In this document: piece by piece, positions 4,315-44,977 of the stretch
How the letters are laid out: every line of letters starts with the position of its first letter
How positions within the stretch are numbered: the first letter of the stretch is position 1
Source: an uncultured Clostridia bacterium
GTDB taxonomy: Bacteria; Bacillota; Clostridia; TANB77; UBA1234
DNA length: 64,000 nt
Direction of reading: 5' to 3'
NCBI GenBank assembly: GCA_947588905.1
Contig: CANQBB010000002.1
Location: 170 to 64,169, forward strand
The notes under the pieces: generated by a model
Seen by the model: only the letters and a program-made list of their open reading frames with translations
The model's database searches: none
Told to the model about the DNA's origin: nothing
Program-made: the position numbers and the translations under genes

Positions 4315-4331
4315 TAGTTAATTCACCTCTT

Positions 4332-6935: not shown

Positions 6936-6995
6936 TTTAATTATCTCTTAACATAGTAAAAAAGTCAATTGATAAAAGTAAATTTTACTAATTAT

Positions 6996-7589
6996 TTAAT
7001 TTTTAAAAATACTTTTAATTATATAATTTAGATAATCTAATGAAGTTAAATTTGATAGAAATAATTGTATAATCATTTCTATGAATTCTTCTAGAAAATC
7101 ATAATAATTTTTCATTGAAAAGTTAATAAAACAATCTACTTGTATATAATTTGTTTTTCTAAAATTTTTTAATAAACATGATAAAATAATTTGTTGCCTG
7201 TATAAAAAGAATTCTTGAGAATATTCAATAGGTGAGTCCTTACTTAAAATTAAATTGATTATATTATTGATTTTATTTAAAGAACTATTTTCAAAATAAA
7301 AATAGTTATAATGCAAAATCCTTTTTACAATTGTTTTCTCATATTTTTCAATTATTAAATCAGATAAAATCAAAGACAAGCATGTATATAAATAAATGTA
7401 ATTTCCATAAAAGTTTTTACTATTTTCCATTATATTTTTATTGTAATAATTAAAGCATTTAATTACTAAAGTTTTTTCTCCATTTATTTTTCTTGAAAGA
7501 AATTTAATATTTGGATATTCATATAAACTATCAATTAAGTCATTTATAATATTTGAAGTATTAGATTTTATAATTATAGATTTTGGCAT
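6996..7589 (-). CDS. hypothetical protein (197 aa), first gene of the putative glgP-pyk transcription unit
   Basis: ORF with a plausible ribosome-binding site. Very AT-rich, Leu/Ile/Asn/Tyr-rich. No family recognised. Confidence 0.35.
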   Translation of the reverse strand: MPKSIIIKSNTSNIINDLIDSLYEYPNIKFLSRKINGEKTLVIKCFNYYNKNIMENSKNFYGNYIYLYTCLSLILSDLIIEKYEKTIVKRILHYNYFYFENSSLNKINNIINLILSKDSPIEYSQEFFLYRQQIILSCLLKNFRKTNYIQVDCFINFSMKNYYDFLEEFIEMIIQLFLSNLTSLDYLNYIIKSIFKN

Positions 7590-7748
7590 TTACAATTCAC
7601 CTCAAAGATATTGTTTTACTATTTAAAATAATTATTCTAAATATACTATTCTTTTCCAATGAAAAAAGATAATGAATTAAATAAAATCTATTGAAAAAAA
7701 AACTGGTTATTGTATAATAGAATTAAATATACTATGAGGTGAAAAAGA

Positions 7749-13700: not shown

Positions 13701-14531
13701 AGAGCAGCTGCTAATAATACTGAAGAAGAAATATTTAAGGATAAAAATTTAATAGATTTATCAAGAAGTGTTGTATTAGAAAACAATGAAAAACAAGCAA
13801 TTGTTAAATTAAATGAACTTAATAAAAAGATAATTGGTGAACTAAATACTATGAAGACATCATTTGACTTAAATATGAAAGATTCAGTTCTTAGAAATAT
13901 TAGTCAATACATGCAAGAAGAAAAAGATATTATCGAAAAAGAATTAAGTGACATGATTACAAATGATAAATCTGGAAAGAAGTTTATGAAAGTATTAGAA
14001 GCAATTGTACAAGATGATTTTGAATATTCAAAAATGCAACAGAGAAAAAATGTTTTATTAACAGATTATTTTGTAAATTCAAAAATTTCAGCAAATGAGC
14101 AAGCTAACTATATATGTGAGCGTGGAAAGAATGAAAAAGGATTATTAGTATTGCAAGAAAAAATAAAAAATGAAAAGAAGAATATAGCTGAATTACAAAA
14201 ATTATTTATTGAGATGATATATGAAAGAGCAATGTTAGATAATTATTACAAGACTAGAACCAAGGCAAAAGATGATTACTTTATAAATGAAGCAGATAGA
14301 AATTCTATGGGTTCAGAAATTGTTATTCTTGTAACCAATATATTACCACGACAAGCTTATAGTATATTACAAAAAGATACTAATATATCTTTAGCACAAG
14401 AAAATGAATTAGATGCAATAATAAATCTATTAACACCACAACAAAGGACAACGTTGGAAAAGATGGTAGATGATACAAAAGATAATAGATTAAAGAAATC
14501 AATGCAAAAGAGATTGAAAAATATTACATAA
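7749..14531 (+). CDS. giant repetitive protein (2260 aa): N-terminal about 520-aa unique domain, about 19 tandem 74-aa MucBP-like beta modules, C-terminal about 350-aa coiled-coil-like region; no signal peptide
   Basis: Single uninterrupted ORF with the ribosome-binding site GAGGTGAAAAAGAATG. The modules repeat the pattern V.V.Y.D..G..I......Q[VI]G..[FY].P.......D..G..W........ENI[IV].V.YEP. The N-terminus is not hydrophobic. The C-terminus is rich in E/K heptad-like stretches. Confidence 0.8.
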   Translation: MKIIEKVLKNKLSQYGYNVDTISEKLKQIDFDLIDNQIAFENEAENFITIKEYNEPTVEIARMLANYNKYYIQNMIIEGEINYTTAMSSINTVMPVVDYKLSNSICIVATTTALNVEVIIYSPDARVAQMYGNQTYENAFSDERNKIAKEYYDAFVENGRVPEIKVKGILALLLSEYVIDELTITGANPKIKMYDNVDAYAENITEYKIKYINRKTNKVELAHKPIYIKRLGTGVSAGFISNDPYIKLDNLPEGADFPLNVISYYWTNATRNKKEEISIYIATKPYGNYKTYKEYRENSSNKYGELINALVLQFQKETGFSIDREYISNVLKKLNPELIYPSMDIIRDCMDNPADPVEPIRYKYKAISVPEDFESRLYISIEDNLGKRYKYKLTENVLDDLTRVGNKLEYTGEDGNIVRKQSVADFNVNACTAIIRRETLIDSTQIPGLLGYIYEDVEYIGTDMLPVPSIEVDFYFPLLAKSEISMFNGTNFESDMASFENANKFNATDGNTVIDTIPGTTYAVVRYVNSKGEVLKENKITNLFPGTPYVPEIIPIINDINGLEWVCSNSQYPSTVINMIPEYNVIEIKYVEKFSKVTIVYLNREGKKICDDVIETLQAGTTYDLSKKMQYTDEQNNDWRLVTARPQKLLVKDDESKNNIILIYDLEKEPVKVRFLKPDGEEVKEALVKDFQVGKQYTLQVDRIIIDKEGLGWVYNGKNPVSCMVEEDKENLIEVTYEEYKLPVVVKYQTEDGVVILNDYVEYLQVGKEFIPKYENDVTDFKLKRWKFKSLNKKELIVSKNKDENEIKVIYEPLLANVFIQLFDEMGKKIISPIQKEAQIGGEFSSGFLDDITDNYGKMWTKADEPKTLIVSDIEAENNITIKYKPLIVKVVVKFFDDERNELIPSKNYERQAGTKFIPEIIKKLESSDGRKWIYNDEKNSEVTVRKNEEENIVSIFYDKELTDVRLEFMDAYNNVIRDSTVVQAQIGSVFNERLFEKVEDREGCKWMLESSEPKKMVVKVDNNNFKLFYGEMKAIVIVKHINVNTNKSIIDDIVAKVKLGGVFVPNIPEKIFDSNKLQWSFIGDKNFSIVVKENEQENIVMLQYDETLAKVNVKYQDTYNNKLRDDIDYDYQIGKDVDLKNMEKFIDNNGIGWKLQSSKTKNNKVQESGNEVVNTYEPWYSEVKVRYLNDKDEEIADPFVKKIQVGRGFKPTYENRIEDGIGLLWTYSSISEEEIKLSENGNTIDVKYEPVYSNVTERLFNKAEEKIGDEIVNKYQVGSNIKFTPEEIYVDSETKKWNFIKVDRPSIRVKESEEQNIVNRVYEPRMTDLIVKMLDDNSNEIADQKKYSVQVGSIYKANVPKTHIDKKTGLGWALPENPEDTMKVDEDKSKNILSVKYIKYMVKVTDRIVDLDKNIIIPDTEKMLQVGTTYAPHIEQVLNDQEGKEWLYNEKRKKDLLFDSAEQAKAFKGEKLEITVSEDEEKNIVFLKYKPSLEKVTIKYQNDLGEIIAPEEEVDAQIGSVFTPNIKEMVVDSKKNKWAYNPNSKSTITVSRDKTKNLIVLSYEEEKAPIIYLYCDEYDNELREPKKKLAQIGSICTPEIDSIVSDNEGKVWEYKSANVDKITVKDSEKDNIVKVTYVPLLMDVKVYFKSRKGELIGSETQKAQLGSTFKPATNETINDKDSKMYRIIGCEPEELVIKENPIGVEEEINKFNVSYDPVFSDITTVYQDVDGNKLKDDEVIQLQVGTKYTPKLIQFVKDRKGIQWQNISETVDAIRVMEDPKSNIIKMTFELAKAEVLVRYKDIDGNIIRESERFDSKIGEEFVPKIEDIIEDAKSRKWVFSMADPVKLTVGSINNIINLIYQEKKVPVVIKYETIDGKKLKEDTKVNVQEGSQYTPKKNYPIIYDENNEMWRYLEFRPSSLLVTDKDSENIIIQVYDNKEESERKPVLENPFANTLTEEEMKIVEEQTAKIEMQKKEEEMAKERAAANNTEEEIFKDKNLIDLSRSVVLENNEKQAIVKLNELNKKIIGELNTMKTSFDLNMKDSVLRNISQYMQEEKDIIEKELSDMITNDKSGKKFMKVLEAIVQDDFEYSKMQQRKNVLLTDYFVNSKISANEQANYICERGKNEKGLLVLQEKIKNEKKNIAELQKLFIEMIYERAMLDNYYKTRTKAKDDYFINEADRNSMGSEIVILVTNILPRQAYSILQKDTNISLAQENELDAIINLLTPQQRTTLEKMVDDTKDNRLKKSMQKRLKNIT

Positions 14532-14543
14532 TAAAAAATAAAA

Positions 14544-14586
14544 AAGAAGAGGTTGTATAAAATTTAACAGCCTCTTCTTTTTATTG
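14544..14586. terminator. bidirectional intrinsic terminator (AAGAAGAGG-TTGTATAAAATTTAACAG-CCTCTTCTT)
   Basis: A 9-bp stem with A-run and T-run on either side. It lies between the giant gene and the convergent GH57 gene. Confidence 0.65.
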
Positions 14587-14604
14587 TTTAAATTAGTGAC
14601 AAAA

Positions 14605-16185
14605 TTATTTATAAAGTGTGTAATCTATATCCGGAAATATCAAATCTTTATATTCAATGTCTTCTAAATATTCTTCATTTATTTCATTCTTATCTATCAT
14701 ATCAGCAAGTGCATTAAATCTTCCAATATGATCTTTAACACGTTTATGAGCATATTCAACCATAGTATTTGCAGTTATTATAAAAGGCCAGTCACTACTT
14801 TGAGCAAGAAGCAATTCTCTTGCACATTGTTTCAATGCTCTTTCTTGCAATGGATATGGTTTTTGATATGTTTGAGCTAAATATTGCATTCTTTCAGCTG
14901 CATTGTGTAAATGTCTATATATATAATCGTTCGCAGGATTTAACCATACCTCATTAAAACCATGTGCTCCCCATGTAGATATAGATGGATTTGATTCTTG
15001 TATATTTGGAAATTTATTAAGATATTCGGTAGGAGTTATTAGTTCAATGGTATCCTGATTATAATGAATTTTTTTAAATAAAACATATAACCAATAAGGA
15101 CCTTCATACCACCAATGTCCATATAGTTCTGCATCATATGGACAAGTTATTATTGGAGGTATTTTCATATCATTACAAACAGAATTAACTTGCTCAATTC
15201 TAGAACTAATAAAATGGTCTGCCTGAAGTTCAGCAACTCCCATAGCATTATCTTTATTGTATAATTCTTTTTGATTTGTTTTTCCTGTAATTTTATAATA
15301 TTTTAATCCAGTATCAACTCTATGACCACTACGTGATACATATCTTTTTATATATTCCCATTCTGATTCATAACCAATATCTTTATAAAATTCTCTATAA
15401 TTTGGATCACCTGGGTAACCACAAATTGAACTCCAAACTTGTTTAGAACTTTCATTATCTCTTCCAAAAGCAACTAAACCATTTGAAGATATAATTGGAG
15501 CTAAGGTACCATATAAAGGTTTTGGATTGGCATTTAATATTCCATGAGTTTCTAAGAACACATATTTTATTCCGTATTTTAATAATGTTGATTCTAGTTC
15601 TGGTATATATGCACATTCAGAAAGCCACATTCCATTTGGATTTCTACCAAATGCTTTTTTATATGTATCTACACCTGTTGCAATTTGTACTTCAACTGCA
15701 GATGGATTAACGTTTAACAAAGGCAAAAATCCATGTGTTGCGGGACAAGCTATTATCTCTAAAACTCCTATATCTTGAAAATGCTTAAAAGCTTCTACTA
15801 AATCAGAATTATATTTTCGTTTATAAAAAATATAATATTCTTTAAAATTCCAAAAATACATTTTTGCTAAATCATTTAATTGCTTGTTGTCTTTTGTTCT
15901 TTTAATTTCTTTACCAGCTAATCTAATTCTTTCAATAAGATACATTCTATATCTTGCTTGAAGTAAAGGATCTTTTAGCATAGTGATTAGTGGAGGACTT
16001 ATATTCATAGTTATTCTAAATTTAATATTTTCATCTACGAGTTTTTGAAAATAAATTAAAAGAGGAATATAAGTTTCAGAAATGGCTTCGAACAGCCATC
16101 TTTCTTCTATATATTCCTCAGTTTCCGGATGCCTTACATACGGTAAATGTGCATGCAAAACAATATTTAAATATCCTTTTGGCAT
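14605..16185 (-). CDS. 1,4-alpha-glucan branching enzyme, glycoside hydrolase family 57
   Basis: 526 aa. The N-terminal LNIVLHAHLPYVRHPE is the GH57 signature. The size fits a GH57 branching enzyme. Confidence 0.85.
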   Translation of the reverse strand: MPKGYLNIVLHAHLPYVRHPETEEYIEERWLFEAISETYIPLLIYFQKLVDENIKFRITMNISPPLITMLKDPLLQARYRMYLIERIRLAGKEIKRTKDNKQLNDLAKMYFWNFKEYYIFYKRKYNSDLVEAFKHFQDIGVLEIIACPATHGFLPLLNVNPSAVEVQIATGVDTYKKAFGRNPNGMWLSECAYIPELESTLLKYGIKYVFLETHGILNANPKPLYGTLAPIISSNGLVAFGRDNESSKQVWSSICGYPGDPNYREFYKDIGYESEWEYIKRYVSRSGHRVDTGLKYYKITGKTNQKELYNKDNAMGVAELQADHFISSRIEQVNSVCNDMKIPPIITCPYDAELYGHWWYEGPYWLYVLFKKIHYNQDTIELITPTEYLNKFPNIQESNPSISTWGAHGFNEVWLNPANDYIYRHLHNAAERMQYLAQTYQKPYPLQERALKQCARELLLAQSSDWPFIITANTMVEYAHKRVKDHIGRFNALADMIDKNEINEEYLEDIEYKDLIFPDIDYTLYK

Positions 16186-16201
16186 TTAATTATACCTCCG
16201 T

Positions 16202-16726
16202 TTATTTTTGTAAATTATTCATTGAACTATATGTATCATCATAATCACCAAATGATAATTCAGTGTATTTCTTAAGAGTTTTTCTATTTTGAGTGTATAT
16301 TTTAAATTTATCTGTAATTGAAAGACAGATACAATTTCTAAATATAATATCTTCATTAAATTCACATGGAGAACTTCTTGGAATATGAGTTTGATTTGAA
16401 GATGAAATTAAAAAAGTTTTATCTTGATATTTTCTTAACAATTCAATTTTATAATCACAATCTGAATCTTTAACTTCGATATAGTAATTATTTGAAAATG
16501 GACTAATTTGTATTTCATAAGAGTAGTTCATCGTCAAATTGGTTATTCTTAAAAAAGGAGTGCAATTTTCGTATTTTTCATTTTGCTTAGAAAATGTTTG
16601 TATATCTTTGTCAGAAATATCCCAATAGGCAAACATTCTAGTTGGAGACTGCACTAGTAATTTTACACTAGTTTTGTCATATTTAGTTGGTAAATCATAA
16701 TATTCTGACTTAAAACTGCGTACCAA
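16202..16726 (-). CDS. DUF4912-like protein commonly paired with GH57 branching enzymes
   Basis: 174 aa, immediately upstream of and co-directional with the GH57 gene. Sequence-level assignment to DUF4912 is from memory only. Confidence 0.55.
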   Translation of the reverse strand: MVRSFKSEYYDLPTKYDKTSVKLLVQSPTRMFAYWDISDKDIQTFSKQNEKYENCTPFLRITNLTMNYSYEIQISPFSNNYYIEVKDSDCDYKIELLRKYQDKTFLISSSNQTHIPRSSPCEFNEDIIFRNCICLSITDKFKIYTQNRKTLKKYTELSFGDYDDTYSSMNNLQK

Positions 16727-16926
16727 AATATTACCTCCCTAATTTATCATCTGTACATCTATTAAAATATTTTATATTAAAAGTTATTTAAATTCAACAT
16801 TTTTAAAATATTTTTAAAAAAAATTTGTATTATCTTTACAAATAAAGTCAAGTTAGATAAAATTATAGTATAAATACACAAGAAAATTAAGATACAGCAG
16901 ATTAAATTTTGAGGGGAGTAATTTTT

Positions 16927-18267
16927 ATGAGAATAATGATGCTTTCTTGGGAATATCCACCAAGGATTGTAGGTGGTATTGCTAGGGTTGTACATGATTT
17001 ATCACATAACTTTGCTAAACAAGGACATGAAGTTCATGTAATAACTTATCAAGAAGGAGACACAAAAGAATTTGAAAAAGATGGAGATGTTTTTGTACAT
17101 AGAGTTTCAAATTATCCAATAAATGCAAACAATTTAATTGATTGGGTAATGCAACTTAATTTTTGTATGTTAGAGAAAGCATCGGCAGTTATAAAAGAGT
17201 ATGGAAAATTTGATGTAGTGCATGCTCATGATTGGTTAGTTGCTTATGCGGCTAGAGCAATAAAGAAATCGTATAAATTACCATTAGTTGCAACAATTCA
17301 TGCAACTGAAAGTGGAAGAAATAAAGGAATACATAATAAATCTCAAGGATATGTAAATGATGTTGAATGGTTACTTACATACGAAGCTAGTCATGTTATT
17401 TGTAATAGCTATTATATGAAAAATGAAATAAAAAATTTATTTGGTAAACCTGAAGATGATATTTTTGTTGTTCCAAATGGAATAAATGTAAATAAATTTG
17501 ATAATGAAGAAAGAGATTGGGAGTTTAGAAGAAATTATGCAGCTGATTATGAAAAAATAATTTTCTTTGCTGGTAGAATAGTAAATGAAAAAGGAATACA
17601 AATTTTATTACAAGCTGCTCCAAAAATTCTGGCTAATTATCCAAACGTTAAATTTGTAATAGCAGGAAGAGGACCATGCTTAGATGAATTAAAAGGTTTA
17701 GCAGATTATCTTGGAATATCAAATAAAGTTTACTTTACAGGTTATTTAAATGATGCACAAATTACTAAGATGTATAAAGCAATAGATATTGCAACATTTC
17801 CAAGCTTATATGAACCATTTGGAATAGTTGCATTAGAAGGAATGCTTGCAGGTGCAGCTACAGTTGTTTCTGATGCTGGTGGATTAAATGAAATTGTTTC
17901 TCATGGAATTGATGGAATGAAATCATATGCTGGAAATGCTAATTCACTTGCAGATTCTATACTTGAAGTTTTATTTAATGAGAATTTATGTAAGAGTATG
18001 GCGAGAAACGCAAGAGAAAAAGTTATTAGAGAATTTAATTGGGGTGTAATTGGAAAGAAAACGTTGGATGTTTATAAACTAGCAATTAAAGCTAATAAAG
18101 CTACTTTGAAATCAGATGTAAGCATAGAAAAATTAGCAGAAAAAGAAAGCTATGGAACTGCTACATGTGTTGATGGAAAAGATACAACAATTACCACAGA
18201 CACTACAGATACAGAAATAAAAGCATTGCATAATCCACTTAAGAAAAAAGTTTTAGGAAGAGCATAA
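16927..18267 (+). CDS. glycosyltransferase family 4 (glycogen/alpha-glucan synthase-like, GlgA-type)
   Basis: MRIMMLSWEYPPRIVGGIARVVHDL is the GT4 N-terminal motif. The C-terminal half is GT-B-like. Start taken at the ATG after the ribosome-binding site GAGGGGAG. Confidence 0.8.
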   Translation: MRIMMLSWEYPPRIVGGIARVVHDLSHNFAKQGHEVHVITYQEGDTKEFEKDGDVFVHRVSNYPINANNLIDWVMQLNFCMLEKASAVIKEYGKFDVVHAHDWLVAYAARAIKKSYKLPLVATIHATESGRNKGIHNKSQGYVNDVEWLLTYEASHVICNSYYMKNEIKNLFGKPEDDIFVVPNGINVNKFDNEERDWEFRRNYAADYEKIIFFAGRIVNEKGIQILLQAAPKILANYPNVKFVIAGRGPCLDELKGLADYLGISNKVYFTGYLNDAQITKMYKAIDIATFPSLYEPFGIVALEGMLAGAATVVSDAGGLNEIVSHGIDGMKSYAGNANSLADSILEVLFNENLCKSMARNAREKVIREFNWGVIGKKTLDVYKLAIKANKATLKSDVSIEKLAEKESYGTATCVDGKDTTITTDTTDTEIKALHNPLKKKVLGRA

Positions 18268-18549: not shown

Positions 18550-20025
18550 ATGGAGAATTACAATATATATCAAAATATTGCAACAAGAACAAATGGAGAT
18601 ATATACATAGGTGTTGTTGGTCCGGTTAGAACAGGTAAATCAACTTTTATAAAACATTTTATGGAATTAGCAGTTCTTCCCAATATAAAAGATGATGTTA
18701 AAAGACAGAGGGCTCAAGATGAATTACCTCAAAGCTCTAATGGAAGAACTATAATGACAACTGAACCAAAGTTTATTCCGAACGAAGCTATACAAATTAC
18801 TGTAGATAATGTTAAGTTTAATACAAGAATGATTGATTGTGTAGGATATTTAATCAATAATAGCATTGGACATATGGAAGGAGATGTACCGAGAATGGTA
18901 AGAACTCCTTGGTCTGATGAGGAAATTCCATTTGAAGAAGCAGCTGAAATTGGAACTAAAAAAGTTATTGATGAACATTCTACTATAGGAATTTTAGTAA
19001 CAACAGATGGAAGTGTAACTGGAATTGACAGAAGTGATTATTTAAATGCAGAAGATAGAGTTGTAAAAGAATTGAAAAAGCAAAATAAACCATTTATAAT
19101 TATTTTAAACACAATAAATCCAGATGATGAAAATGCTAAAAAGATGTGTATTGATTTAGAAAATACATATGATGCTCCTGTAGTTCCAATGAATTGTGAA
19201 CATTTAAGTAATGATAATATAAATGATATTTTAGAAAAAATTTTATATGAATTTCCAATCAATGAAATTGATATGAACTTTCCTAAATGGATTGATTCTT
19301 TGGATAATTCACATTGGCTAAAAAAGAATATTTTAGATATAATAAAAGACAATTTATCAGATATGAAAAATTTAAGACAAATAAAATTACTAATGAATAC
19401 ACTTGGTGATGGAAACATTATTAAAAAAATGGATGCCGATGAAATCTTTTTAAACAATGGAGTTGTTAATGTAAAAGTTGAAATTGATAAAAATTTATTT
19501 TATAAAGTATTAACGGAAATGTCTGGAATAGATGTAAAAGAAGAGGGGGACTTATTTAGTATTGTTACATCAATGGCTAAAAGTAAAAAAGCATATGACA
19601 AGATTGAGCAAGCATTAAATGAAGTAAAAAGAAAGGGCTATGGAATAGTTAATCCTGATATTGATGATTTAACTTTGGAAGAACCAGAAATAGTAAAACA
19701 AGGTTCAAAGTTTGGAGTTAAATTAAGAGCAAAGGCACCTAGTCTACATATAATAAGAGCTGAAATTGAAACTGAAATTTCTCCTATAGTAGGAAGTGAA
19801 AAGCAATCAGAAGAGTTGGTGAACTATTTACTAAAGGAATTTGAAGATGATCCAAAACAGATTTGGCAATCTAATATATTTGGAAAGTCATTACATGAAC
19901 TTGTAAATGAAGGACTTCAGAATAAGTTATATAAAATGCCAGAGGATGCTCAAATGAAATTCCAAGAGACATTAGAAAAAATTATTAACGAAGGTAGTGG
20001 TGGCTTAATTTGTATTATACTTTAA
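18550..20025 (+). CDS. spoIVA: stage IV sporulation protein A (spore coat morphogenetic ATPase)
   Basis: 491 aa. The N-terminus YIGVVGPVRTGKSTFIKHFMELAVLPNI carries the SpoIVA Walker A. Full-length similarity to SpoIVA. Confidence 0.93.
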   Translation: MENYNIYQNIATRTNGDIYIGVVGPVRTGKSTFIKHFMELAVLPNIKDDVKRQRAQDELPQSSNGRTIMTTEPKFIPNEAIQITVDNVKFNTRMIDCVGYLINNSIGHMEGDVPRMVRTPWSDEEIPFEEAAEIGTKKVIDEHSTIGILVTTDGSVTGIDRSDYLNAEDRVVKELKKQNKPFIIILNTINPDDENAKKMCIDLENTYDAPVVPMNCEHLSNDNINDILEKILYEFPINEIDMNFPKWIDSLDNSHWLKKNILDIIKDNLSDMKNLRQIKLLMNTLGDGNIIKKMDADEIFLNNGVVNVKVEIDKNLFYKVLTEMSGIDVKEEGDLFSIVTSMAKSKKAYDKIEQALNEVKRKGYGIVNPDIDDLTLEEPEIVKQGSKFGVKLRAKAPSLHIIRAEIETEISPIVGSEKQSEELVNYLLKEFEDDPKQIWQSNIFGKSLHELVNEGLQNKLYKMPEDAQMKFQETLEKIINEGSGGLICIIL

Positions 20026-20727: not shown

Positions 20728-20846
20728 GTACTTTCATCACATGAAAAGTATAGCAAGAAAAATAAATAATATAGTCTATCTGACTGGACTATGTCATTTA
20801 AAGATGATATAATATGGAAAATTACTATTTAAAGAAAGGAATTAAA

Positions 20847-21224
20847 ATGAAAATTACTGATGAAATTGAAGATTTAATATTAAAAATAAATATAGCTACA
20901 GATTTAAATATTCTTTTAATAGATAATAAACAAATTGTATATTTTATTGGTGAAACAGATCTTTGTGCAAAATATCTATATGAACATATTTCAAATGAAT
21001 TAAAAGATATACAAAAAGTTATAAAAGAAATTAAATTTTTTAAAGATTTAGATACTTTAAAAATAATTGCAAATGATAGAGCTAAATATAAATGTCAAGC
21101 TATTGGAAAATTAAAAAATGAAAATCAATATATCATGTTTTATAAATTAGATGATGATTTTACTGAAAAAGAAAAGAAGATAATAGAATCTACATATCTA
21201 TTATTGAATAAGTATGTAGATTAA
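20847..21224 (+). CDS. hypothetical protein (about 125 aa), divergent from the XRE regulator
   Basis: ORF with an internal ATG at 20847 preceded by AAAGGAATTAAA. No family recognised. Confidence 0.35.
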   Translation: MKITDEIEDLILKINIATDLNILLIDNKQIVYFIGETDLCAKYLYEHISNELKDIQKVIKEIKFFKDLDTLKIIANDRAKYKCQAIGKLKNENQYIMFYKLDDDFTEKEKKIIESTYLLLNKYVD

Positions 21225-32901: not shown

Positions 32902-35373
32902 ATGAAGGTACTATTTGCAATAGGAAGTGAACAAACTTCTAAAAGAGTTGCCGAAAAATATTATGAAAAATTTGGAGAAGAATTAGAATATAAAAATGTT
33001 TTTTATTTTCAAGCTCTCTTGAATGAAGTTAAAGCTGATAAAACTTATGACAGAATTGTTATAAGCGAAGAATTAGAAGAATTTGTAATAAAAAATAATG
33101 TAGAAGCTTTTGATAGACTTATATTTAATAAAATTGATAGTATAACAGATGAAATTGAGGATTCAGAAATCATTGTTATATGCTCTGATAGAAGAAGCAA
33201 AAATCAAGATAGATTTGTTGAAAGACTTTTTAGTATTGGTGTATATAACATATTGATTGGTGATGAAAGAAATGTTGAATCACTATGTAACTGCATAAAT
33301 AAACCACTAAATAAAAAAGAAGCAAAAAGACATTTAAACATTAATCCTGTAGTTAGTAATAGCGAACTTTCTACTAGAGATGATGAAGTAGAAGAAGTTC
33401 AAATGCTAAATATATTAAAATATTATGATGGAATTAAAGGAAAAGTAGATGAATATGTTCCTGCATTTGACAGAATAGCTGAACAATATAGCCAAGTACA
33501 ATTAAAAGTAATTGCAAGTCAACTTCCTGCTGATGTAAAAAGAGAATTACTTAAATCTGAAAGATATATATTCTTATCTGATGTTTTAATGCCTAGAGGA
33601 AGTGAAACACCTCAAAAGAATAATGTAATAAAACAACAGGTTAGTAAACCTTCTAAGATGGGATTATTTGGATTCTTGAAAAAGAATTCAAATTCGAATT
33701 CAAATCCAATTAGTGAAAATACTAGAAGAACTGATAGACCAGGTGCAATTGATAGAGAACCAACTAACATTGAACAAGAAAGAAGAAATAGTGCTGAAAT
33801 GGATGCCATTGCTTTACAGGAAGCTAAAGATAGAGAACAAGCCGAATTGAGAGCAAAAGCAGAACGTGAGGCTATGGAAAGAGAACAAGCTGAATTAAGG
33901 GCTAAAGCAGAACAAGAAGCTAGAGACAGAGAACAAGCTGAATTAAAAGCAAAAGCTGAGCAAGAAGCTAGAGACAGAGAACAAGCTGAATTAAAGGCAA
34001 AAGCAGAACAAGAAGCTAGAGATAGAGAACAAGCTGAACTAAGAGCAAAGGCCGAACAAGAGGCTAGGGATAGAGAGCAAGCTGAAAAGACTAGAGTAGA
34101 ACAAGAAACTATGGCTAGACAACAAGCTGAATTGAAAGCTAGAGCAGAGCAAGAAACTAGAGAAAGAGAACAAGCTGAACTAAGAGCTAGAGCAGAACAA
34201 GAAGCTAGGGACAGAGAGCAAGCTGAGCTAAGAGCTAGAGCAGAACAAGAAGCTAGAGATAGACAACAGGCTGAATTGAAAGCTAGAGCAGAACAAGAAG
34301 CTAGAGACAGAGAACAAGCTGAGTTAAGGGCTAGAGCAGAACAGGAAGCTATGGCTAGACAGCAAGCAGAATTAAAATCTAAAGAAGAACAAGGAGTTCA
34401 AAGAAAAATGGAACAAGATTCATTAGAAGAAGAAAGAAGAAAATTAGAGCAAGAAAAACTTGCATTAGAAGAGGAAAGAAAAAAATTAAGAGAACAAACA
34501 GAACAGCTTAGCAAATCTGCAGGAATGAGTTCGACTCCTAGACCTACAATTGATACTAATTATGATAGCAAAAAAATGGATTATAAAAAGATGGTAATTT
34601 TTGTCGGTGCAAATAAAAGTGGAACAACATTTATGGTTAATGCTATTTCACATCATTTGGCTGATAATAGAGTTGGTGTCGGTGTATTAGATATGACAAG
34701 AGATAGAAGTCTTTATTATATATATAATCAAGATAGCAAAGAATTAAGAGATGTTGCACTTGGTTGTATGCAAAAATTATCTGAAGGTGTTGATTCATAT
34801 ATTCAAGGTAAGAGAAACTTAAAAATATATACATCAGTACCAGGCACTAATGTTGATAATAGAAGAGGCTTTAGAAATAAATCTATTATAGATACTTTGA
34901 CAAATAATAATAATCTTGTTATAGTAGATGCTGATTTCTCAGCTCCATTAGAATATTTTGAAAAAGCTGATGAAATATATATAGTACAAGACTTAGATAT
35001 TATGAAGATGCAAGAAACAACATTATTTTTACGTGAGCTAAAAAATAGAAGTGTAAATATGAATAAAATTAGAATTATAATAAATAAGTATGTTAAATGT
35101 CAATTAACACCTAAGAAAATAATAGAAGGTTTATCATATTATAATGATCCACAAATGTCATTTGTAGATGAAATATTAGATAATAAAACAGCTTATTATT
35201 TAGTTCCAATTAGTATTGAAAATTATACTAATTATATTGAAAGTATGTATAAAAATAATATAGATTATAAAAAATATACACCAGATTTCTTAAATGCTAT
35301 TAAAGATATTGCTTCTGTTGTTTATAAAAGAGGAGGAGCAACTCAAACAAAGAGAAGAGGAATCTTTGGATAG
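32902..35373 (+). CDS. three-part protein (823 aa): receiver-like N-domain, 11 tandem 16-aa repeats (DREQAELRAKAEQEAR), degenerate ParA/MinD/CpaE-like P-loop C-domain
   Basis: Ribosome-binding site GGAAGGTGATTATAGATG. The N-domain (MKVLFAIGSEQTSKRVAEKY...IVICSD) is flavodoxin/REC-like. The centre is a perfect-period charged repeat. The C-domain (MVIFVGANKSGTTFMVNAISHHLADNRVGVGVLDMT...LVIVDADFSAP) aligns to the deviant Walker A and Walker B of the MinD/ParA/CpaE family with substitutions. Confidence 0.75.
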   Translation: MKVLFAIGSEQTSKRVAEKYYEKFGEELEYKNVFYFQALLNEVKADKTYDRIVISEELEEFVIKNNVEAFDRLIFNKIDSITDEIEDSEIIVICSDRRSKNQDRFVERLFSIGVYNILIGDERNVESLCNCINKPLNKKEAKRHLNINPVVSNSELSTRDDEVEEVQMLNILKYYDGIKGKVDEYVPAFDRIAEQYSQVQLKVIASQLPADVKRELLKSERYIFLSDVLMPRGSETPQKNNVIKQQVSKPSKMGLFGFLKKNSNSNSNPISENTRRTDRPGAIDREPTNIEQERRNSAEMDAIALQEAKDREQAELRAKAEREAMEREQAELRAKAEQEARDREQAELKAKAEQEARDREQAELKAKAEQEARDREQAELRAKAEQEARDREQAEKTRVEQETMARQQAELKARAEQETREREQAELRARAEQEARDREQAELRARAEQEARDRQQAELKARAEQEARDREQAELRARAEQEAMARQQAELKSKEEQGVQRKMEQDSLEEERRKLEQEKLALEEERKKLREQTEQLSKSAGMSSTPRPTIDTNYDSKKMDYKKMVIFVGANKSGTTFMVNAISHHLADNRVGVGVLDMTRDRSLYYIYNQDSKELRDVALGCMQKLSEGVDSYIQGKRNLKIYTSVPGTNVDNRRGFRNKSIIDTLTNNNNLVIVDADFSAPLEYFEKADEIYIVQDLDIMKMQETTLFLRELKNRSVNMNKIRIIINKYVKCQLTPKKIIEGLSYYNDPQMSFVDEILDNKTAYYLVPISIENYTNYIESMYKNNIDYKKYTPDFLNAIKDIASVVYKRGGATQTKRRGIFG
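33826..34380 (+). repeat. intragenic tandem repeat, 48 bp repeated about 11 times (encodes [D/M]REQAEL[R/K]AKAEQEA[R/M])
   Basis: Direct reading shows gatagagaacaagctgaattaagagc(a/t)a(a/g)agcagaacaagaagctaga units with synonymous or conservative variation. Confidence 0.85.
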
Positions 35374-39798: not shown

Positions 39799-40602
39799 AT
39801 GCAAAAGGAGACCACAATTACAATAGCTGACGATAATGTAGATTTTGCACAAGTTTTAAACAAATTTTTAAGTAGTCAAGAAGGTATTAAAGTTATAGGA
39901 ATGGCACATAATGGTGAAGATGCAATTGATATGATTGAGAAATTAAATCCAGACATAGCATTATTAGATGTTATAATGCCACAATTAGATGGCTTAGGAG
40001 TATTAGAAAAATTAGATTTAATTAACAAACCAAGAAAGACAAAGTTTATGATGCTTTCTGCAGTTGGACAAGATGCGATTACTCAAAGAACTCTAGCTTT
40101 AGGAGCACAATATTATATGATTAAACCATTTGATTTAGATACATTGATTCAACGTATTAGAGAAATAAACGAAGGCTTAATTGAAAATATACCAACTCAA
40201 GAAAACATTATTAAATCTGCACATATTTCTATAATGAAAAAAGAAGATGAATCAATAGAAAGCATGGTAACTAAAATAATGCATGAAGTTGGAGTACCTG
40301 CTCACATAAAAGGATATCAATATATAAGAGAAGCAATTATTTTAGCTGTAAATGATATTGAGACAATAAATTCTATTACAAAACTTTTATATCCAACACT
40401 TGCTAAAAAATTTAAAACAACTCCATCAAGGGTAGAAAGAGCTATACGTCATGCAATAGAAGTTGCTTGGTCTAGAGGAGAAATGAATGTAAATAATGAA
40501 ATGTTCGGAAATACAATTTCTGCAACTAAAGGCAAACCAACTAATAGTGAGTTTATTGCAATGATTGCAGATAAATTAAGACTTGAAACTAAATCAGCAT
40601 AA
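39799..40602 (+). CDS. spo0A: sporulation master regulator Spo0A (response regulator)
   Basis: 267 aa. REC domain ([12 protein letters not shown]...[14 protein letters not shown]). The Spo0A-specific C-terminus ([18 protein letters not shown]...[31 protein letters not shown]) is unmistakable. Confidence 0.95.
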
Positions 40603-40612
40603 AAATTAAAAT

Positions 40613-40642
40613 GGAAAAGGCACCAAATGTGGTGCCTTTTCG
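40613..40642. terminator. bidirectional intrinsic terminator (AAAAGGCACCA-AATG-TGGTGCCTTTT)
   Basis: An 11-bp perfect stem with a T-run, between spo0A and the convergent MBL-fold gene. Confidence 0.7.
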
Positions 40643-40657
40643 AGATTCCTCCTCTCG

Positions 40658-41662
40658 TCATTTTTCGGTTTGAACCTGAACTGAAGTGCCGTCAGAAATA
40701 ATAACTACGTTTCCACTTTTATTGTTATATACTTTGGCTGTTAAGCCAAGGGCACTGATGGTATTGTTTGTGGGTTTCGAACTGTTTGCTGGAACTAGTA
40801 TAATTTGCGGGTTCACCGCTTGTAAAACTTTGTTGCTGGCATATAACCTCCCTTCAATTTTCAATCCGTGGTGAGGCATTTGGAATACATCTACATCACG
40901 AATGATGTCATAATCCAAAACCTGGTCATGAGTATAGTCACCCGTCATGAAGAAGGTCGTTTCTCCAAATTTCATGACGAAGTTTAGGGAGTTGCAATTT
41001 TCAAGACCAGAAAGCTTGTACGGGCCGACACAAGTAAATTCAATGGGACCAATCGAGAACTGCTGTCCAGGGAGCATTTGCTGGTAGGTGCCTTTTCCAG
41101 ATGGCATATACTCAGACGGAGCAGAAGCAGAGTTACCAAAAACCAAAGTTTCAGGATTACCAAACTGTTCCAGAATCGCTCTCATATTTCCTACATGATC
41201 ACCATGCCAGTGCGTGGCAATATATGCAGAAAGATGAGTTACCCCATGATTCTGCAAATAGGAAATGACCTTTTCTCTAGAATCTTTGAGTCCACCATCA
41301 ATCATGATAGCAGTATCACCAGAAATAACGAGATGTGCGTTGGCACACCCAACATTTATCTGGTGAAGCTCAAAACTCTTAGGAATTTCGGTTGGCTGAG
41401 GGGTCGGTTCTGGGGTAGGCTGAGCAGTAGGTTCAGTAGTTGTCTGGATGTTGGGTTCAGTCGTCGGTTGGATAGTTGCTTCGACCGTTGGTTCAGACGT
41501 TGATTCTGGTGTTGGCTTAGTCGACAGTTGTGTGATTGTCGTAGTGACGATGGATAATTTCTGAGAAATTATCCCGGGTTGAACCACCTCGAGAACAATG
41601 GCAGTCATCAGAACAATGACTACTACAATCTCGAGAGCAATGATGAAAGTACTTAACCGCAT
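40658..41662 (-). CDS. membrane-anchored MBL-fold metallo-hydrolase with Pro/Thr-rich linker, encoded in a GC-rich (40-55 %) segment
   Basis: Start at the ATG preceded by AAGGAGGGAGATTTTTCC (M R L S T F I I A...). One transmembrane helix, then a PT-rich low-complexity linker (TEPTVEATIQPTTEPNIQTTTEPTAQPTPEPTPQPTEIP), then a metallo-beta-lactamase domain (HWHGDHVGN, ...DVFQMPHHG). Confidence 0.75.
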   Translation of the reverse strand: MRLSTFIIALEIVVVIVLMTAIVLEVVQPGIISQKLSIVTTTITQLSTKPTPESTSEPTVEATIQPTTEPNIQTTTEPTAQPTPEPTPQPTEIPKSFELHQINVGCANAHLVISGDTAIMIDGGLKDSREKVISYLQNHGVTHLSAYIATHWHGDHVGNMRAILEQFGNPETLVFGNSASAPSEYMPSGKGTYQQMLPGQQFSIGPIEFTCVGPYKLSGLENCNSLNFVMKFGETTFFMTGDYTHDQVLDYDIIRDVDVFQMPHHGLKIEGRLYASNKVLQAVNPQIILVPANSSKPTNNTISALGLTAKVYNNKSGNVVIISDGTSVQVQTEK

Positions 41663-41934
41663 GGAAAAATCTCCCTCCTTTAGTAAAAGGTTATAATTAT
41701 ATTTTACCACATGTTTACATAAAAATCAAACTTATACAACATATTAACAATACTTAAAAATTATATTGTAAAAAAATAAATATTTAAAGCTTTATAGTAT
41801 GGTATAAAATATAATTTTAAAAATTTACATAAAATGTTGAAAAATATTAAGAAAAGTTATATAATGCAAATGATGTCAATGAAGACATTGTTTCTTTTCC
41901 ACACTTGCGACTTTTAATAAAGGAGGAAGTAAAA

Positions 41935-42132
41935 ATGTCTGACAAGATGCATGCCGATTCTTATGCTCTTAGTTACCTCGAAAAGAAAGCAGAAAAAGTA
42001 GGATATGATTATAGTAGCACTGATGAACGTCAGAAGGGCATTGATGATTATATGGATGAATTGAATCAGTATGATCTTACAGCACAACAGAAAGAATCAC
42101 TTATATATACTGCAAATGGTCATGGACGCTAA
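41935..42132 (+). CDS. small hypothetical protein (65 aa), GC-elevated
   Basis: Ribosome-binding site AAAGGAGGAAGTAAAAATG. Followed by a strong terminator. No family recognised. Confidence 0.35.
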   Translation: MSDKMHADSYALSYLEKKAEKVGYDYSSTDERQKGIDDYMDELNQYDLTAQQKESLIYTANGHGR

Positions 42133-42150
42133 TTGAATTTGGAAAAGATA

Positions 42151-42181
42151 AGGAACAGGCTAAAAAGCCTGTTCTTTTTTA
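42151..42181 (+). terminator. intrinsic terminator (AGGAACAGGCT-AAAA-AGCCTGTTCT + TTTTTT)
   Basis: A 10-bp stem plus a T-run. Confidence 0.7.
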
Positions 42182-42367
42182 TCTAAAAAACCAGTTATGT
42201 AATGAGGATATTTATATAAAAAATAAACTTAAAAGAATATATATTTTTAAAAATATAAAACTATTACTATATTGAAAAAATTATATATAATAATTGAAAA
42301 TTTATATTTGTAATGCTATGATTAAATATGAAGAAATATAGTTTTTTACAAATGAGGAGGTAATAGT

Positions 42368-44977
42368 TTGGATACTAATCGTGAATTGATTGACAATGTA
42401 GATAAATTAAAAAGAGCTATAGATAGAGTAAAAAACGCACAAAAAGAATTTTCAAAATATACTCAAGAACAAGTAGATAAAATATTTTTTGAGGCAGCTA
42501 TTGCAGCAAATAAGGCTAGAATTCCACTTGCAAAAATGGCAGTTGAAGAAACTAATATGGGAGTTATTGAAGATAAGGTTATAAAAAATCATTATGCTTC
42601 TGAGTATATTTATAATGCATATAAAAATACAAAAACATGTGGACTAATTGAAGAAAATGGATCTTATGGAATAAAAAAATACGCAGAGCCTATTGGAGTT
42701 ATTGCAGCTGTTATTCCAACAACAAATCCAACTTCGACAGTTATATTTAAAACTTTACTTGCTTTAAAAACAAGGAATGGAATAATAATTAGTCCACATC
42801 CTAGAGCTAAAAAATCTTCTATTGAAGCAGCAAGAATTGTATTAGATGCTGCTGTAAAAGCTGGAGCACCGGAAGGCATAATTGATTGGATTGATGTTCC
42901 GTCATTAGAACTTACAAATACTGTTATGAGAGAATCAGATTTGATACTTGCAACAGGTGGACCAAGTATGGTTAAGGCTGCTTATTCTAGTGGAAAGCCT
43001 GCACTTGGAGTTGGAGCAGGAAACACGCCAGCTATTATAGATGATTCGGCAGATATTATATTAGCAGTAAATTCTATAATTCATTCAAAAACTTTTGATA
43101 ATGGTATGATTTGTGCTTCAGAACAGTCTGTAATTGTTTTAGATGGAATATATGAAAAAGTAAAAGAAGAATTTAGTAAAAGAGGTTGTTACTTTTTAAA
43201 TGATGAAGAAAAAGATAAAGTTAGGAAGACTATGATTATAAATGGTGCAGTAAATGCAAAAATAGTGGGACAAACTGCTTGCAAAATTGCAGAACTATCT
43301 GGAATAAATGTTCCAAGTAACACAAAAATTTTAATTGGAGAAGTTGAAGACACATCAATTTCAGAAGAATTTGCTCATGAAAAATTATCTCCAGTTTTAG
43401 CTATGTATAGAGCTGAAAACTTTAATGACGCAATTGAAAAGGCCCATGAACTTGTTAATGATGGTGGACATGGACATACATCATCAATATATATCAATAC
43501 TATTACCGAAAAAGAAAAATTAAAATTATTTGAAACAAAAATGGAAACGTATAGAGTGCTTGTAAATACGCCGTCTTCTCAAGGTGGAATTGGAGATATA
43601 TATAATTTTAAATTGGCACCATCTCTTACTTTAGGTTGTGGAAGCTGGGGAGGTAATTCAGTATCAGAGAATGTAGGAGTTAAGCATTTATTAAATATAA
43701 AAACAGTTGCAGAAAGGAGAAATAATATGCTTTGGTTCAGAACACCTGAAAAGATATATTTGAAAAGAGGTTCAATACCTGTAGCACTCCAAGAGTTGAA
43801 AGATGTTTATGACAAAAAAAGAGTTTTTATTGTAACAGATTCATATCTATATAAAACTGGTTTTACAAGATGTGTAACAGATAAGTTAAATGAATTAGGT
43901 ATCGAACATACAGTATTTTCAAATGTTGAATCTGATCCATCTCTTGCGTCTGCAATTGAAGGTACAAAAATAATGACAGAATTTCAACCTGATTGTATTA
44001 TAGCATTAGGTGGTGGAAGTCCTATAGATGCTGCAAAAATAATGTGGGTAATGTATGAGCATCCAGAAGTAGATTTTATGGATATGGCAATGAGGTTCAT
44101 GGATATAAGAAAACGTGTATATACATTTCCTAAAATGGGAGAAAAAGCATATTTTATAGCTATACCAACATCTGCTGGAACTGGTTCAGAAGTCACTCCT
44201 TTTGCAGTCATTACAGATGAAAAAACTGGAATTAAATATCCTCTTGCAGATTATGAATTGATGCCTAAAATGGCAATAGTTGATGCAGATATGATGGCAA
44301 ACTCTCCAAAAGGATTAACAGCTGCTTCTGGAATTGATGCATTGATTCATGGTCTAGAAGCTTATGCATCAATGATGGCAACAGATTTCACAGATGGATT
44401 AGCATTAAAAGCAATAAAAAATATTTTTGAGTATTTGCCTAGGGCATATCAAAATGGTGGAAATGATATGGAAGCAAGAGAAAAAATGGCTGATGCTGCA
44501 ACAATGGCTGGAATGGCATTTGCTAATGCATTTTTAGGAGTATGCCATTCTATGGCTCATAAACTTGGAGCATATCATCATATACCTCATGGAATTGCAA
44601 ATGCACTTTTAATATCGGAAGTATTAAGATTTAACAGTGCAGAAATTCCAAATAAGATGGGAACTTTTCCACAATATGACCATCCACATACATTAAGAAG
44701 ATATGCTGAAATTGCAGAATATCTTGGACTTGGTGGTTCTAATGATAATGAAAAATTAGAAAATCTAATTAGTAAAGTTGAAGAATTAAAAGATAAAATA
44801 GAAATTAAAAAGACTATTAGAGATTACGGAGTAGATGAAAAATATTTCTTAGATACGTTAGATGAAATGACAGAAAATGCTTTTGATGATCAATGCACAG
44901 GAAGTAATCCAAGATATCCACTTCTAAGTGAAATAAAAGATATGTATTTAAAAGCATATTATGGAGGTGAAAGATAA
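42368..44977 (+). CDS. adhE: bifunctional acetaldehyde-CoA / alcohol dehydrogenase
   Basis: 869 aa. N-terminal aldehyde dehydrogenase domain and C-terminal Fe-ADH domain (GGGSPIDAAK, ...HSMAHKLGAYHHIPHG). It apparently starts at TTG after GAGGAGGTAATAG, because the only upstream ATG is followed immediately by TAA. Confidence 0.9.
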   Translation: MDTNRELIDNVDKLKRAIDRVKNAQKEFSKYTQEQVDKIFFEAAIAANKARIPLAKMAVEETNMGVIEDKVIKNHYASEYIYNAYKNTKTCGLIEENGSYGIKKYAEPIGVIAAVIPTTNPTSTVIFKTLLALKTRNGIIISPHPRAKKSSIEAARIVLDAAVKAGAPEGIIDWIDVPSLELTNTVMRESDLILATGGPSMVKAAYSSGKPALGVGAGNTPAIIDDSADIILAVNSIIHSKTFDNGMICASEQSVIVLDGIYEKVKEEFSKRGCYFLNDEEKDKVRKTMIINGAVNAKIVGQTACKIAELSGINVPSNTKILIGEVEDTSISEEFAHEKLSPVLAMYRAENFNDAIEKAHELVNDGGHGHTSSIYINTITEKEKLKLFETKMETYRVLVNTPSSQGGIGDIYNFKLAPSLTLGCGSWGGNSVSENVGVKHLLNIKTVAERRNNMLWFRTPEKIYLKRGSIPVALQELKDVYDKKRVFIVTDSYLYKTGFTRCVTDKLNELGIEHTVFSNVESDPSLASAIEGTKIMTEFQPDCIIALGGGSPIDAAKIMWVMYEHPEVDFMDMAMRFMDIRKRVYTFPKMGEKAYFIAIPTSAGTGSEVTPFAVITDEKTGIKYPLADYELMPKMAIVDADMMANSPKGLTAASGIDALIHGLEAYASMMATDFTDGLALKAIKNIFEYLPRAYQNGGNDMEAREKMADAATMAGMAFANAFLGVCHSMAHKLGAYHHIPHGIANALLISEVLRFNSAEIPNKMGTFPQYDHPHTLRRYAEIAEYLGLGGSNDNEKLENLISKVEELKDKIEIKKTIRDYGVDEKYFLDTLDEMTENAFDDQCTGSNPRYPLLSEIKDMYLKAYYGGER

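Follow-up and report, generated by a model that had tools for sequence, protein, structure and literature searches.

How one open reading frame (ORF) next to spo0A came to be so much richer in GC than the genome around it is the question raised by the stretch of DNA analyzed here, 64,000 nucleotides of contig CANQBB010000002.1 from an uncultured Clostridia bacterium (hereafter the window, whose positions are used below). The ORF encodes a membrane-anchored protein of the metallo-beta-lactamase (MBL) fold. Atypical GC content and codon usage are routinely taken as horizontal transfer, and the original prediction made for this DNA was indeed that the segment had been acquired from a donor of higher GC content. 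Although the islet looks like a textbook case, the comparative data argue against that here. We consider it fairly probable that the MBL gene is an old, clade-specific resident whose GC-rich state has been held across its whole family, with no recent import. Whether one ORF has been kept 15-35 points of GC3 (the GC content of third codon positions) above an AT-rich genome through the whole diversification of its clade by a gene-specific force, either a conversion bias or selection for rare codons, we judge to be evenly balanced.

The window has a GC content of 28.0%. All of its GC-richest 1-kb intervals lie at 40401-41750, where a peak of 0.435 is reached against a mean of 0.280 (standard deviation 0.032), and 200-nt intervals over 40600-41699 have a GC content of 0.39-0.49, with the maximum over the linker codons of the MBL ORF. 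The enrichment that had been described as a 40-55% GC islet is thus real, while its upper value was not reached at the 200-nt resolution, where the maximum is 0.49. Nor did the idea of one continuous segment of about 1.5 kb hold up: in the 200-nt scan GC content falls to 0.165 at 41700-41899, and the segment therefore breaks up into two ORFs on either side of an AT-rich promoter gap instead of forming a single islet. The MBL gene (40658..41662, minus strand) has its ATG at 41662-41660, encodes 334 amino acids including the motif THWHGDHVGN, and has a GC content of 43.3% (GC1/2/3 of 0.50/0.40/0.40), so that the strong contrast with the background, a 43% GC ORF in a 28% GC window, was confirmed.

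This contrast extends to synonymous sites. The GC3 of the other 47 ORFs of the window ranges from 0.07 to 0.26 (0.07-0.22 if a small ORF discussed below is left out) against 0.40 in the MBL ORF, and in the codon-adaptation check that had been recommended the MBL ORF was again the outlier: measured against the remainder of the window, its codon usage scored -0.33 where the other ORFs scored +0.05 to +0.47. The anomaly is therefore synonymous and goes beyond mere amino-acid bias. Codons ending in A or T are reduced and those ending in C or G increased, and CGG, CGC, CCC, CTC and TCC, near-absent from host genes, are used. Pyruvate kinase and adhE, which are typically highly expressed genes, are among those with the lowest GC3 (0.10 and 0.13), and for this reason the MBL codons are regarded as non-optimal. 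The same low values rule out translational selection for high expression. A codon usage peculiar to sporulation-class or secreted proteins was ruled out as well, since SpoIVA, SpoIIE, SpoIID and HtrA are normal, as was an adenine-specific depletion in the style of diversity-generating retroelements, since A and T both fall when compared with lagging-strand neighbours.

The family to which the protein belongs was traced in metagenomic contigs or metagenome-assembled genomes, whose loci are cited below by number (L001 and so on). Among 5.8 billion proteins the exact window protein was a singleton cluster; its nearest homologues were 55% identical, the best one residing in a low-GC relative, and the close family comprised about 30 proteins. 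When 1.84 billion representatives were searched with a profile and no filter, only about 10 core representatives were returned, together with a second tier of about 25, the latter with signal peptides and Arg/Ala-rich sequences; one second-tier member (L020) lies on a 60% GC contig and has a host-like GC3 of 0.73. In a neighbour-joining tree the low-GC proteins, which have the anchor and linker, formed one clade, sister to the second tier. The family is small and fast-evolving, and it is peculiar to one clade of spore-forming gut Clostridia with a low GC content. Recent import from a higher-GC donor, possibly repeated by allelic replacement at the same locus and not yet ameliorated, would fit a GC3 and codon usage that are atypical and like those of a generic genome of about 42-45% GC, and the sister clade does live in high-GC hosts. 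However, the donor search by homology that had been suggested revealed no donor: the best match was the 55% relative, phage and plasmid records held nothing closer than 24-31%, and IMG/VR gave no match, so that no phage, plasmid or IMG/VR reservoir came to light. Furthermore, all 12 distinct contexts that were read for the anchored proteins are low in GC, and their clade is monophyletic.

In each of these 12 contexts the MBL ORF was found to be GC-rich (39-46% GC; GC3 0.28-0.50), on contigs of 28-34% GC where neighbouring ORFs, all but one, have a GC3 of 0.10-0.24. The one exception, L041:324-734 (minus strand; 136 amino acids, GC 0.39, GC3 0.33, contig 33% GC), has no family match and is unrelated to the MBL family. 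The 100 nt before the start codon are host-like, with a GC content of 0.22-0.30, in all nine loci that were profiled, and the rise in GC begins at the start codon. In the window the region upstream of the MBL gene (41701..41788, minus strand) likewise has a host-like GC content of 0.11-0.22, and contains two sigma-70-like promoter matches, at 41788-41760 and 41729-41701 (minus strand), that are consensus matches only. Host-like sequence right up to the start codon is a further point against import. The excess spans the whole ORF including the signal anchor, and in the catalytic domain alone GC3 is still 0.33-0.50. Since distant ComEC-like MBL proteins in other hosts have a host-like GC content, the excess is specific to this family. 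The amino-acid composition of the MBL proteins lies within the host range, at its GC-rich edge, and with GC3 raised in the catalytic domain as well, amino-acid bias as the only cause was ruled out. It had been conceded beforehand that the same gene, at the same locus and of similar GC in all relatives, would be ancestral, its composition reflecting amino-acid bias only; gene, locus and GC were indeed found to be shared with relatives, and the amino-acid explanation failed on the synonymous excess.

The surroundings of the gene were compared across loci. In the window, spo0A (39799..40602, plus strand; 267 amino acids, Pfam Spo0A_C 5e-44 and Response_reg 7e-23, GC3 0.14) is the convergent neighbour of the MBL gene and adhE (42368..44977, plus strand; 869 amino acids) its divergent neighbour. 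The exact Spo0A of the window was found on two metagenome contigs of the same species, both with the 3' part of the MBL gene and 100% and 96.6% identical to the window. Convergence of the MBL gene with spo0A was observed in the window, in L001/L002, and in a second clade (L015/L016, L036 and L040) whose Spo0A is 63-66% and whose MBL protein is 41-47% identical to those of the window, and which has in common with it the order spo0A, IMPACT, FAD oxidoreductase, methionine gamma-lyase, DUF1292, RuvX. The gene's presence in sister genomes is therefore divided: it is convergent with spo0A in the second clade and absent beside spo0A in L003-L005, the sister loci with the closest Spo0A (88-96% identical). 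In these three, upstream synteny is kept to the end of spo0A, and neither the MBL gene nor adhE follows. Comparison of L003:7804-14801, L004:3786-10783 and L005:1743-8737 with the window from 40602 onwards placed the end of synteny exactly at the end of spo0A, and what follows differs from sister to sister: ankyrin and Ham1 genes in one, a helicase-associated-domain protein and uridine kinase in another, DnaJ and a TraG/VirD4-type coupling protein in the third. In this group the DNA 3' of spo0A is a hotspot of rearrangement or insertion.

Import would draw support from the gene's absence beside spo0A in these nearest sisters and from the synteny breakpoint, as it would from the several different loci that the family occupies. 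MBL members were found elsewhere in L014/L037, L041 and L044, and in L013 an adhE-kinase pair flanks an MBL homologue as the divergent flank does in the window. Nonetheless, no integrase or flanking repeats were found around the segment, which is flanked by low-complexity repeats only, and the window has no tRNA gene; no integration scars were thus found. An assembly chimera was ruled out because independent assemblies show the same junctions. In L015, L019, L040, L042 and L045, which represent all three subclades, a htrA gene directly precedes the MBL gene in the same orientation (L015:6653-7876; L019:6678-7886; L040:6649-7875; L042:1927-3126; L045:407-1600; trypsin and PDZ domains), and the two pairs of loci most similar in HtrA (88% and 83%) are likewise those most similar in the MBL protein (63% and 60%). 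htrA and the MBL gene are thus a conserved pair encoding two extracytoplasmic enzymes; the window has no htrA. The ancestral arrangement may have been htrA followed by a co-oriented MBL gene, with spo0A converging on it. Since there is no donor or mobility signature, and since the clade is monophyletic, the locus conserved and the upstream DNA host-like, recent transfer is not supported, and we regard import as improbable.

An old gene could still carry the fading relic of an earlier composition. Between members, codons for one and the same amino acid agree at the third position in only 31-51% of cases, one close pair apart, and these positions are thus saturated; G/C-ending codon sites showed no concordance beyond synonymous shuffles (z = 1.4; 46/500 shuffles), and the 6 shared 7-mers, against 2.2 ± 1.7 in shuffles, fell within the shuffle range (maximum 7). 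These results, together with an Rfam search in which nothing came near threshold, rule out a conserved antisense ORF, a structured RNA and pause sites. A decay model was applied that uses host four-fold-site frequencies and assumes that the gene only decays. For shallow pairs it needed an ancestral four-fold GC of 0.31-0.79; between the window and L015/L036, whose neighbours are 93-95% saturated at four-fold sites, it needed an ancestral GC above 1, and this demand of the deep nodes also counts against import. In L014/L037 the MBL gene co-diverged with its neighbours (synonymous divergence, dS, of 0.67 against 0.55-0.81; about 0.65 overall) and GC3 was kept at 0.35 and 0.34, which again speaks against recent import. 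Polarised synonymous changes in this pair numbered 35 AT-to-GC and 10 GC-to-AT where decay predicts about 3:1 in the opposite direction, although the polarisation rests on near-saturated outgroups that bias it toward AT-to-GC, and this weakens the count as evidence of maintenance. L015 and L018 encode the same protein with 14 synonymous and 0 non-synonymous changes, 5 of them AT-to-GC and 5 GC-to-AT. From the saturation, the failure of the decay model and the lack of net GC loss, it follows that the raised GC3 is a maintained state, no fading relic.

Maintenance requires a force, and the evolutionary rate of the gene bears on its nature. The MBL proteins of L015 and L036 are 46% identical and their neighbours 83-87%; in the sole measurable MBL pair the ratio of non-synonymous divergence (dN) to dS is 0.14, indicating purifying selection. 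A local mutational regime, in which mutation within the ORF is higher and less AT-biased (for example through mutagenesis associated with transcription or with conflicts at a head-on gene), would lift dS, dN and equilibrium GC together, and synonymous and non-synonymous divergence do exceed those of neighbours in most pairs. In addition, the skews at third positions (T>A, C>G) point to a gene on the lagging strand, and the anomaly starts at the ORF without site specificity. Such a regime nonetheless fails to explain why the adjacent, co-oriented htrA is normal or why MBL dS in L014/L037 equals that of the neighbours, and the 14 to 0 ratio in L015/L018 looks like that of ordinary purifying selection. 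We know of no mechanism that yields a GC-ward spectrum confined to one ORF and consider this explanation very improbable. Rapid divergence was also seen in a protein of about 900 amino acids with no Pfam match (L015:1890-4604 against L040:1920-4583), for which dN/dS is 0.67 at a Spo0A identity of 95% and GC3 is normal.

Recombination between alleles offers another route. In a patch at 40733-40826, about 30 mismatches were found in 95 nt between two conspecific strains that are 96.6% identical overall, and protein alleles form triplet mosaics (P0004 with P0007/P0003; P0020 with P0017/P0021) that lose significance once 10,868 tests are corrected for. MBL genes were more saturated than their neighbours at four-fold sites in four out of five pairs. 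The mosaics and the extra saturation suggest allelic exchange, and it is conceivable that divergent alleles of a surface locus recombine through conserved flanks (spo0A, htrA), so that GC-biased repair of the mismatch-rich heteroduplex shifts the ORF and spares the near-identical flanks. Such GC-biased gene conversion would be in keeping with the mosaics and saturation, with an enrichment in non-optimal GC-ending codons that lacks a site-specific pattern, and with amino acids mildly shifted toward GC-rich codons. Recombining bacterial genes have been found to be enriched in non-optimal GC-ending codons with raised GC3, for which a gene conversion hypothesis was put forward (PMC4450053); the MBL gene resembles them in its non-optimal GC-ending codons and its deeply divergent alleles. 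On the other hand, neighbours with equally deep or patchy divergence, namely an HD gene and a 266-aa gene (L015-L040) and the FAD oxidoreductase of the window, have a normal GC3, the upstream non-coding DNA is still AT-rich, and the mosaic p-values do not survive correction. The effects of biased conversion known from bacteria amount to only a few points, and the GC3 excess of about 15-35 points seen here is much larger. Taken together, we hold conversion to be a possible though rather unlikely cause, a close second to selection on codons.

Selection on bulk synonymous composition is our leading guess for the maintaining force, and a tentative one. Synonymous sites have turned over fully while the GC-rich, rare-codon make-up was kept, and GC-ending non-optimal codons might slow the translation of a secreted nuclease or phosphodiesterase that is potentially toxic to the cell, or shape its mRNA. 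Codon selection accounts for the boundary at the start codon and for the lack of a site pattern.

Several points weigh against the readings favoured here. If the gene is an old resident, its loss or relocation must be assumed in L003-L005, and the extra saturation and the allelic exchange suggested by the mosaics do not agree with strictly vertical descent; the restriction of the comparative data to metagenomic material limits the evidence in general. Selection on codons does not account for the extra synonymous divergence, needs many sites of very small effect, and leaves unexplained why htrA, whose product is also extracytoplasmic and which lies on the same strand, is compositionally normal. 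Moreover, expression could be lowered more simply through weak ribosome binding, yet the ribosome-binding site of the MBL gene, AGGAGGGAG as read from the sequence (41671..41679, minus strand; 8 nt before the ATG), is strong.

The product that would be held back in this way was characterized from its sequence and predicted structure. A hydrolase of the MBL fold, anchored in the membrane and carrying a Pro/Thr linker, had been proposed, and Pfam, NCBIfam and an AlphaFold2 model all bear this out. The minus-strand ORF encodes a signal-anchor helix (codons 1-30, 41662-41573; in the model an N-terminal helix at residues 2-30), a Pro/Thr/Glu linker (codons 31-96, 41572-41375; residues 33-75 disordered) and the MBL catalytic domain (codons 97-334, 41374-40661; a compact domain at 97-332). 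The model, built from 30 homologues, has a pLDDT of 82, with at least 90 over 190 residues, and agrees with the alpha-beta/beta-alpha sandwich of the superfamily. Residues H151-W-H153-G-D155-H156, D242 and H264-H265 were located in the MBL domain, and the HxHxDH motif, D242 and the HHG motif (H264/H265) are invariant across the 30 homologues. The match to Pfam PF00753 (Lactamase_B), at 35 bits against a cut-off of 22.7, places the protein in the MBL-fold superfamily, and a Foldseek search of the PDB gave 426 matches at E<=1e-3, the top 50 listed being MBL-fold proteins without exception. The N-terminal anchor, and the fact that sister-clade proteins carry cleavable signal peptides, argue for an outward-facing topology; the catalytic domain is probably extracytoplasmic, as was originally predicted.

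As to its type, a ComEC-like nuclease, a lactamase or a lactonase had been envisaged. The ComEC assignment is supported: the best NCBIfam match was to the C-terminal part of ComEC/Rec2 (TIGR00361, 440-633 of 663; E 1.3e-15), and in the PDB the family profile matched 9ic4, the MBL domain of ComEC from Moorella glycerini (8e-19), as well as full-length ComEC (30bt, 2e-17) and CbpE/Pce (about 1e-15), while in Foldseek 9ic4 ranked first (E 1.4e-16, TM 0.74) with Pce next. The 56.6 bits of the TIGR00361 match are far under its cut-off of 190, which sets the protein outside the full ComEC/Rec2 DNA-uptake family; at 334 amino acids and with one predicted helix (residues 2-30), the channel domain and OB fold are not present. 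The lactamase alternative found no support, as all beta-lactamase models of NCBIfam, those of class B included, scored far under their cut-offs (blaAHM, the best, 46.6 bits against 590; subclass B1 25 against 200; subclass B3 22 against 240). Choline-binding repeats gave no Pfam match and the protein stops at the MBL domain, so that it is not of the Pce/CbpE type proper. We conclude that it is a membrane-tethered, stand-alone member of the ComEC nuclease/Pce branch of the superfamily; it would probably act as a two-metal phosphodiesterase cutting extracellular DNA or a cell-wall phosphodiester.

On the other side of the promoter gap lies the 65-aa small ORF that had been noted as present (41935..42132, plus strand), an orphan encoding an acidic protein and mildly atypical in composition (GC 0.36, GC3 0.26). 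Its sole match among the 5.8 billion proteins was itself, on three contigs of the same species, and it matched nothing in Pfam or NCBIfam. It is preceded by a promoter-like site (41837-41865, plus strand; 11/12 matches) and a ribosome-binding site, AAGGAGGAA, and is followed by a terminator hairpin (42150-42177). Judged by these predicted signals, which are strong, it is a separate transcription unit, and as an orphan absent from every related locus it was ruled out as part of the MBL unit. At the opposite end, in the convergent gap between spo0A and the MBL gene, a 12-bp hairpin (40614..40641) scores as an intrinsic terminator of the MBL transcript and probably also ends that of spo0A. Terminator-like sites numbered 7 against 1.1 expected, and as the flanking terminators at 40614-40641 and 42150-42177 are among those confirmed, this part of the original prediction was correct. 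A near-copy of the terminator 3' arm (40631-40646; 16 nt, 94%) lies within the MBL ORF at 41087-41102, where 13 nt are perfectly complementary to the 5' arm (40612-40624), 462 nt away; with about 0.04 such matches expected, this may be fortuitous or may allow the MBL mRNA to pair in an alternative way.

Other features of the window were recorded. The second-highest GC content (0.37-0.38 in 1-kb intervals) was found at 32902-35373 (plus strand), especially 33450-34700, in an 823-aa ORF with internal repeats spaced by about 50-100 nt, as seen from multiple offset BLAST matches to L003; its GC3 is normal (0.12), and the excess there is therefore one of amino-acid composition. A 2260-aa ORF with a mucin-binding MucBP domain (7749-14531, plus strand), probably a surface adhesin, is matched in part by L004:8199-10723, with 73% nucleotide identity and at a different genomic position. 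A glycogen-metabolism cluster adjoins spoIVA (2875-18267 and 18550-20025) and includes genes for pyruvate kinase, alpha-glucan phosphorylase, a GH57 branching enzyme and a DUF4912 protein and a GT4/GT5 glycogen synthase-like gene. Very AT-rich ORFs were found at 6996-7589 (minus strand; GC 0.165) and at 20814-21224 (plus strand; GC 0.178, GC3 0.07), the latter with no family match.

Mutation in bacteria is biased toward AT, and GC is favoured by a force that still lacks an explanation (PMC2936529, PMC4450053). A single ORF with a large, clade-wide GC3 excess beside normal neighbours would be a compact and tractable system in which to study such a force and, if the force is indeed gene-specific, the locus would lend itself naturally to testing what counteracts the AT bias of mutation. 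The protein furthermore delineates a small and hitherto unnamed subfamily of putative ComEC/Pce-type phosphodiesterases tethered to the cell surface; the subfamily is tied to htrA and spo0A in uncultured gut spore-formers.

Among known systems the closest is the MBL domain of ComEC, an Mn-dependent endonuclease and 5' exonuclease whose catalytic positions comprise a HxHxDH-type motif, a later Asp and a His (PMC12455585). These positions map to H151/H153/D155/H156, D242 and H264/H265 of the window protein, so that it and 9ic4 have in common the HxHxDH-type motif, the later Asp, the HHG His and, by prediction for the window protein, a location on the outside face of the membrane. Unlike ComEC, however, the window protein lacks the channel domain and OB fold and has instead a single signal-anchor helix and a Pro/Thr linker; the VGQGD motif is replaced in its family by VGCA[ND]A, with two invariant Cys, and DNA is only a putative substrate. 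The second-best relative by both structure and sequence is Pce/CbpE, the teichoic-acid phosphorylcholine esterase of Streptococcus pneumoniae (PDB 2bib, 1wra), likewise a two-metal MBL phosphodiesterase at the cell surface; to it the window protein is 18-19% identical, with a membrane anchor in place of cell-wall binding and no choline-binding repeats. Firmicutes, like their plasmids and phages, also encode ComEC-like MBL proteins that stand alone, such as the S-layer-homology fusions on Bacillus mycoides plasmids and, in Geobacillus phage GBSV1, the "late competence protein". These belong to the same MBL subtype and are either secreted or anchored at the surface, but their identity to the window protein is only 24-31% and those distant homologues that were read in other hosts have a host-like GC content. 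In its lasting atypical composition at a conserved locus the gene may also be likened to loci such as O-antigen or capsule clusters, which retain an atypical GC content at one position of the chromosome; the present case differs in being a single GC-rich ORF in an AT-rich genome.

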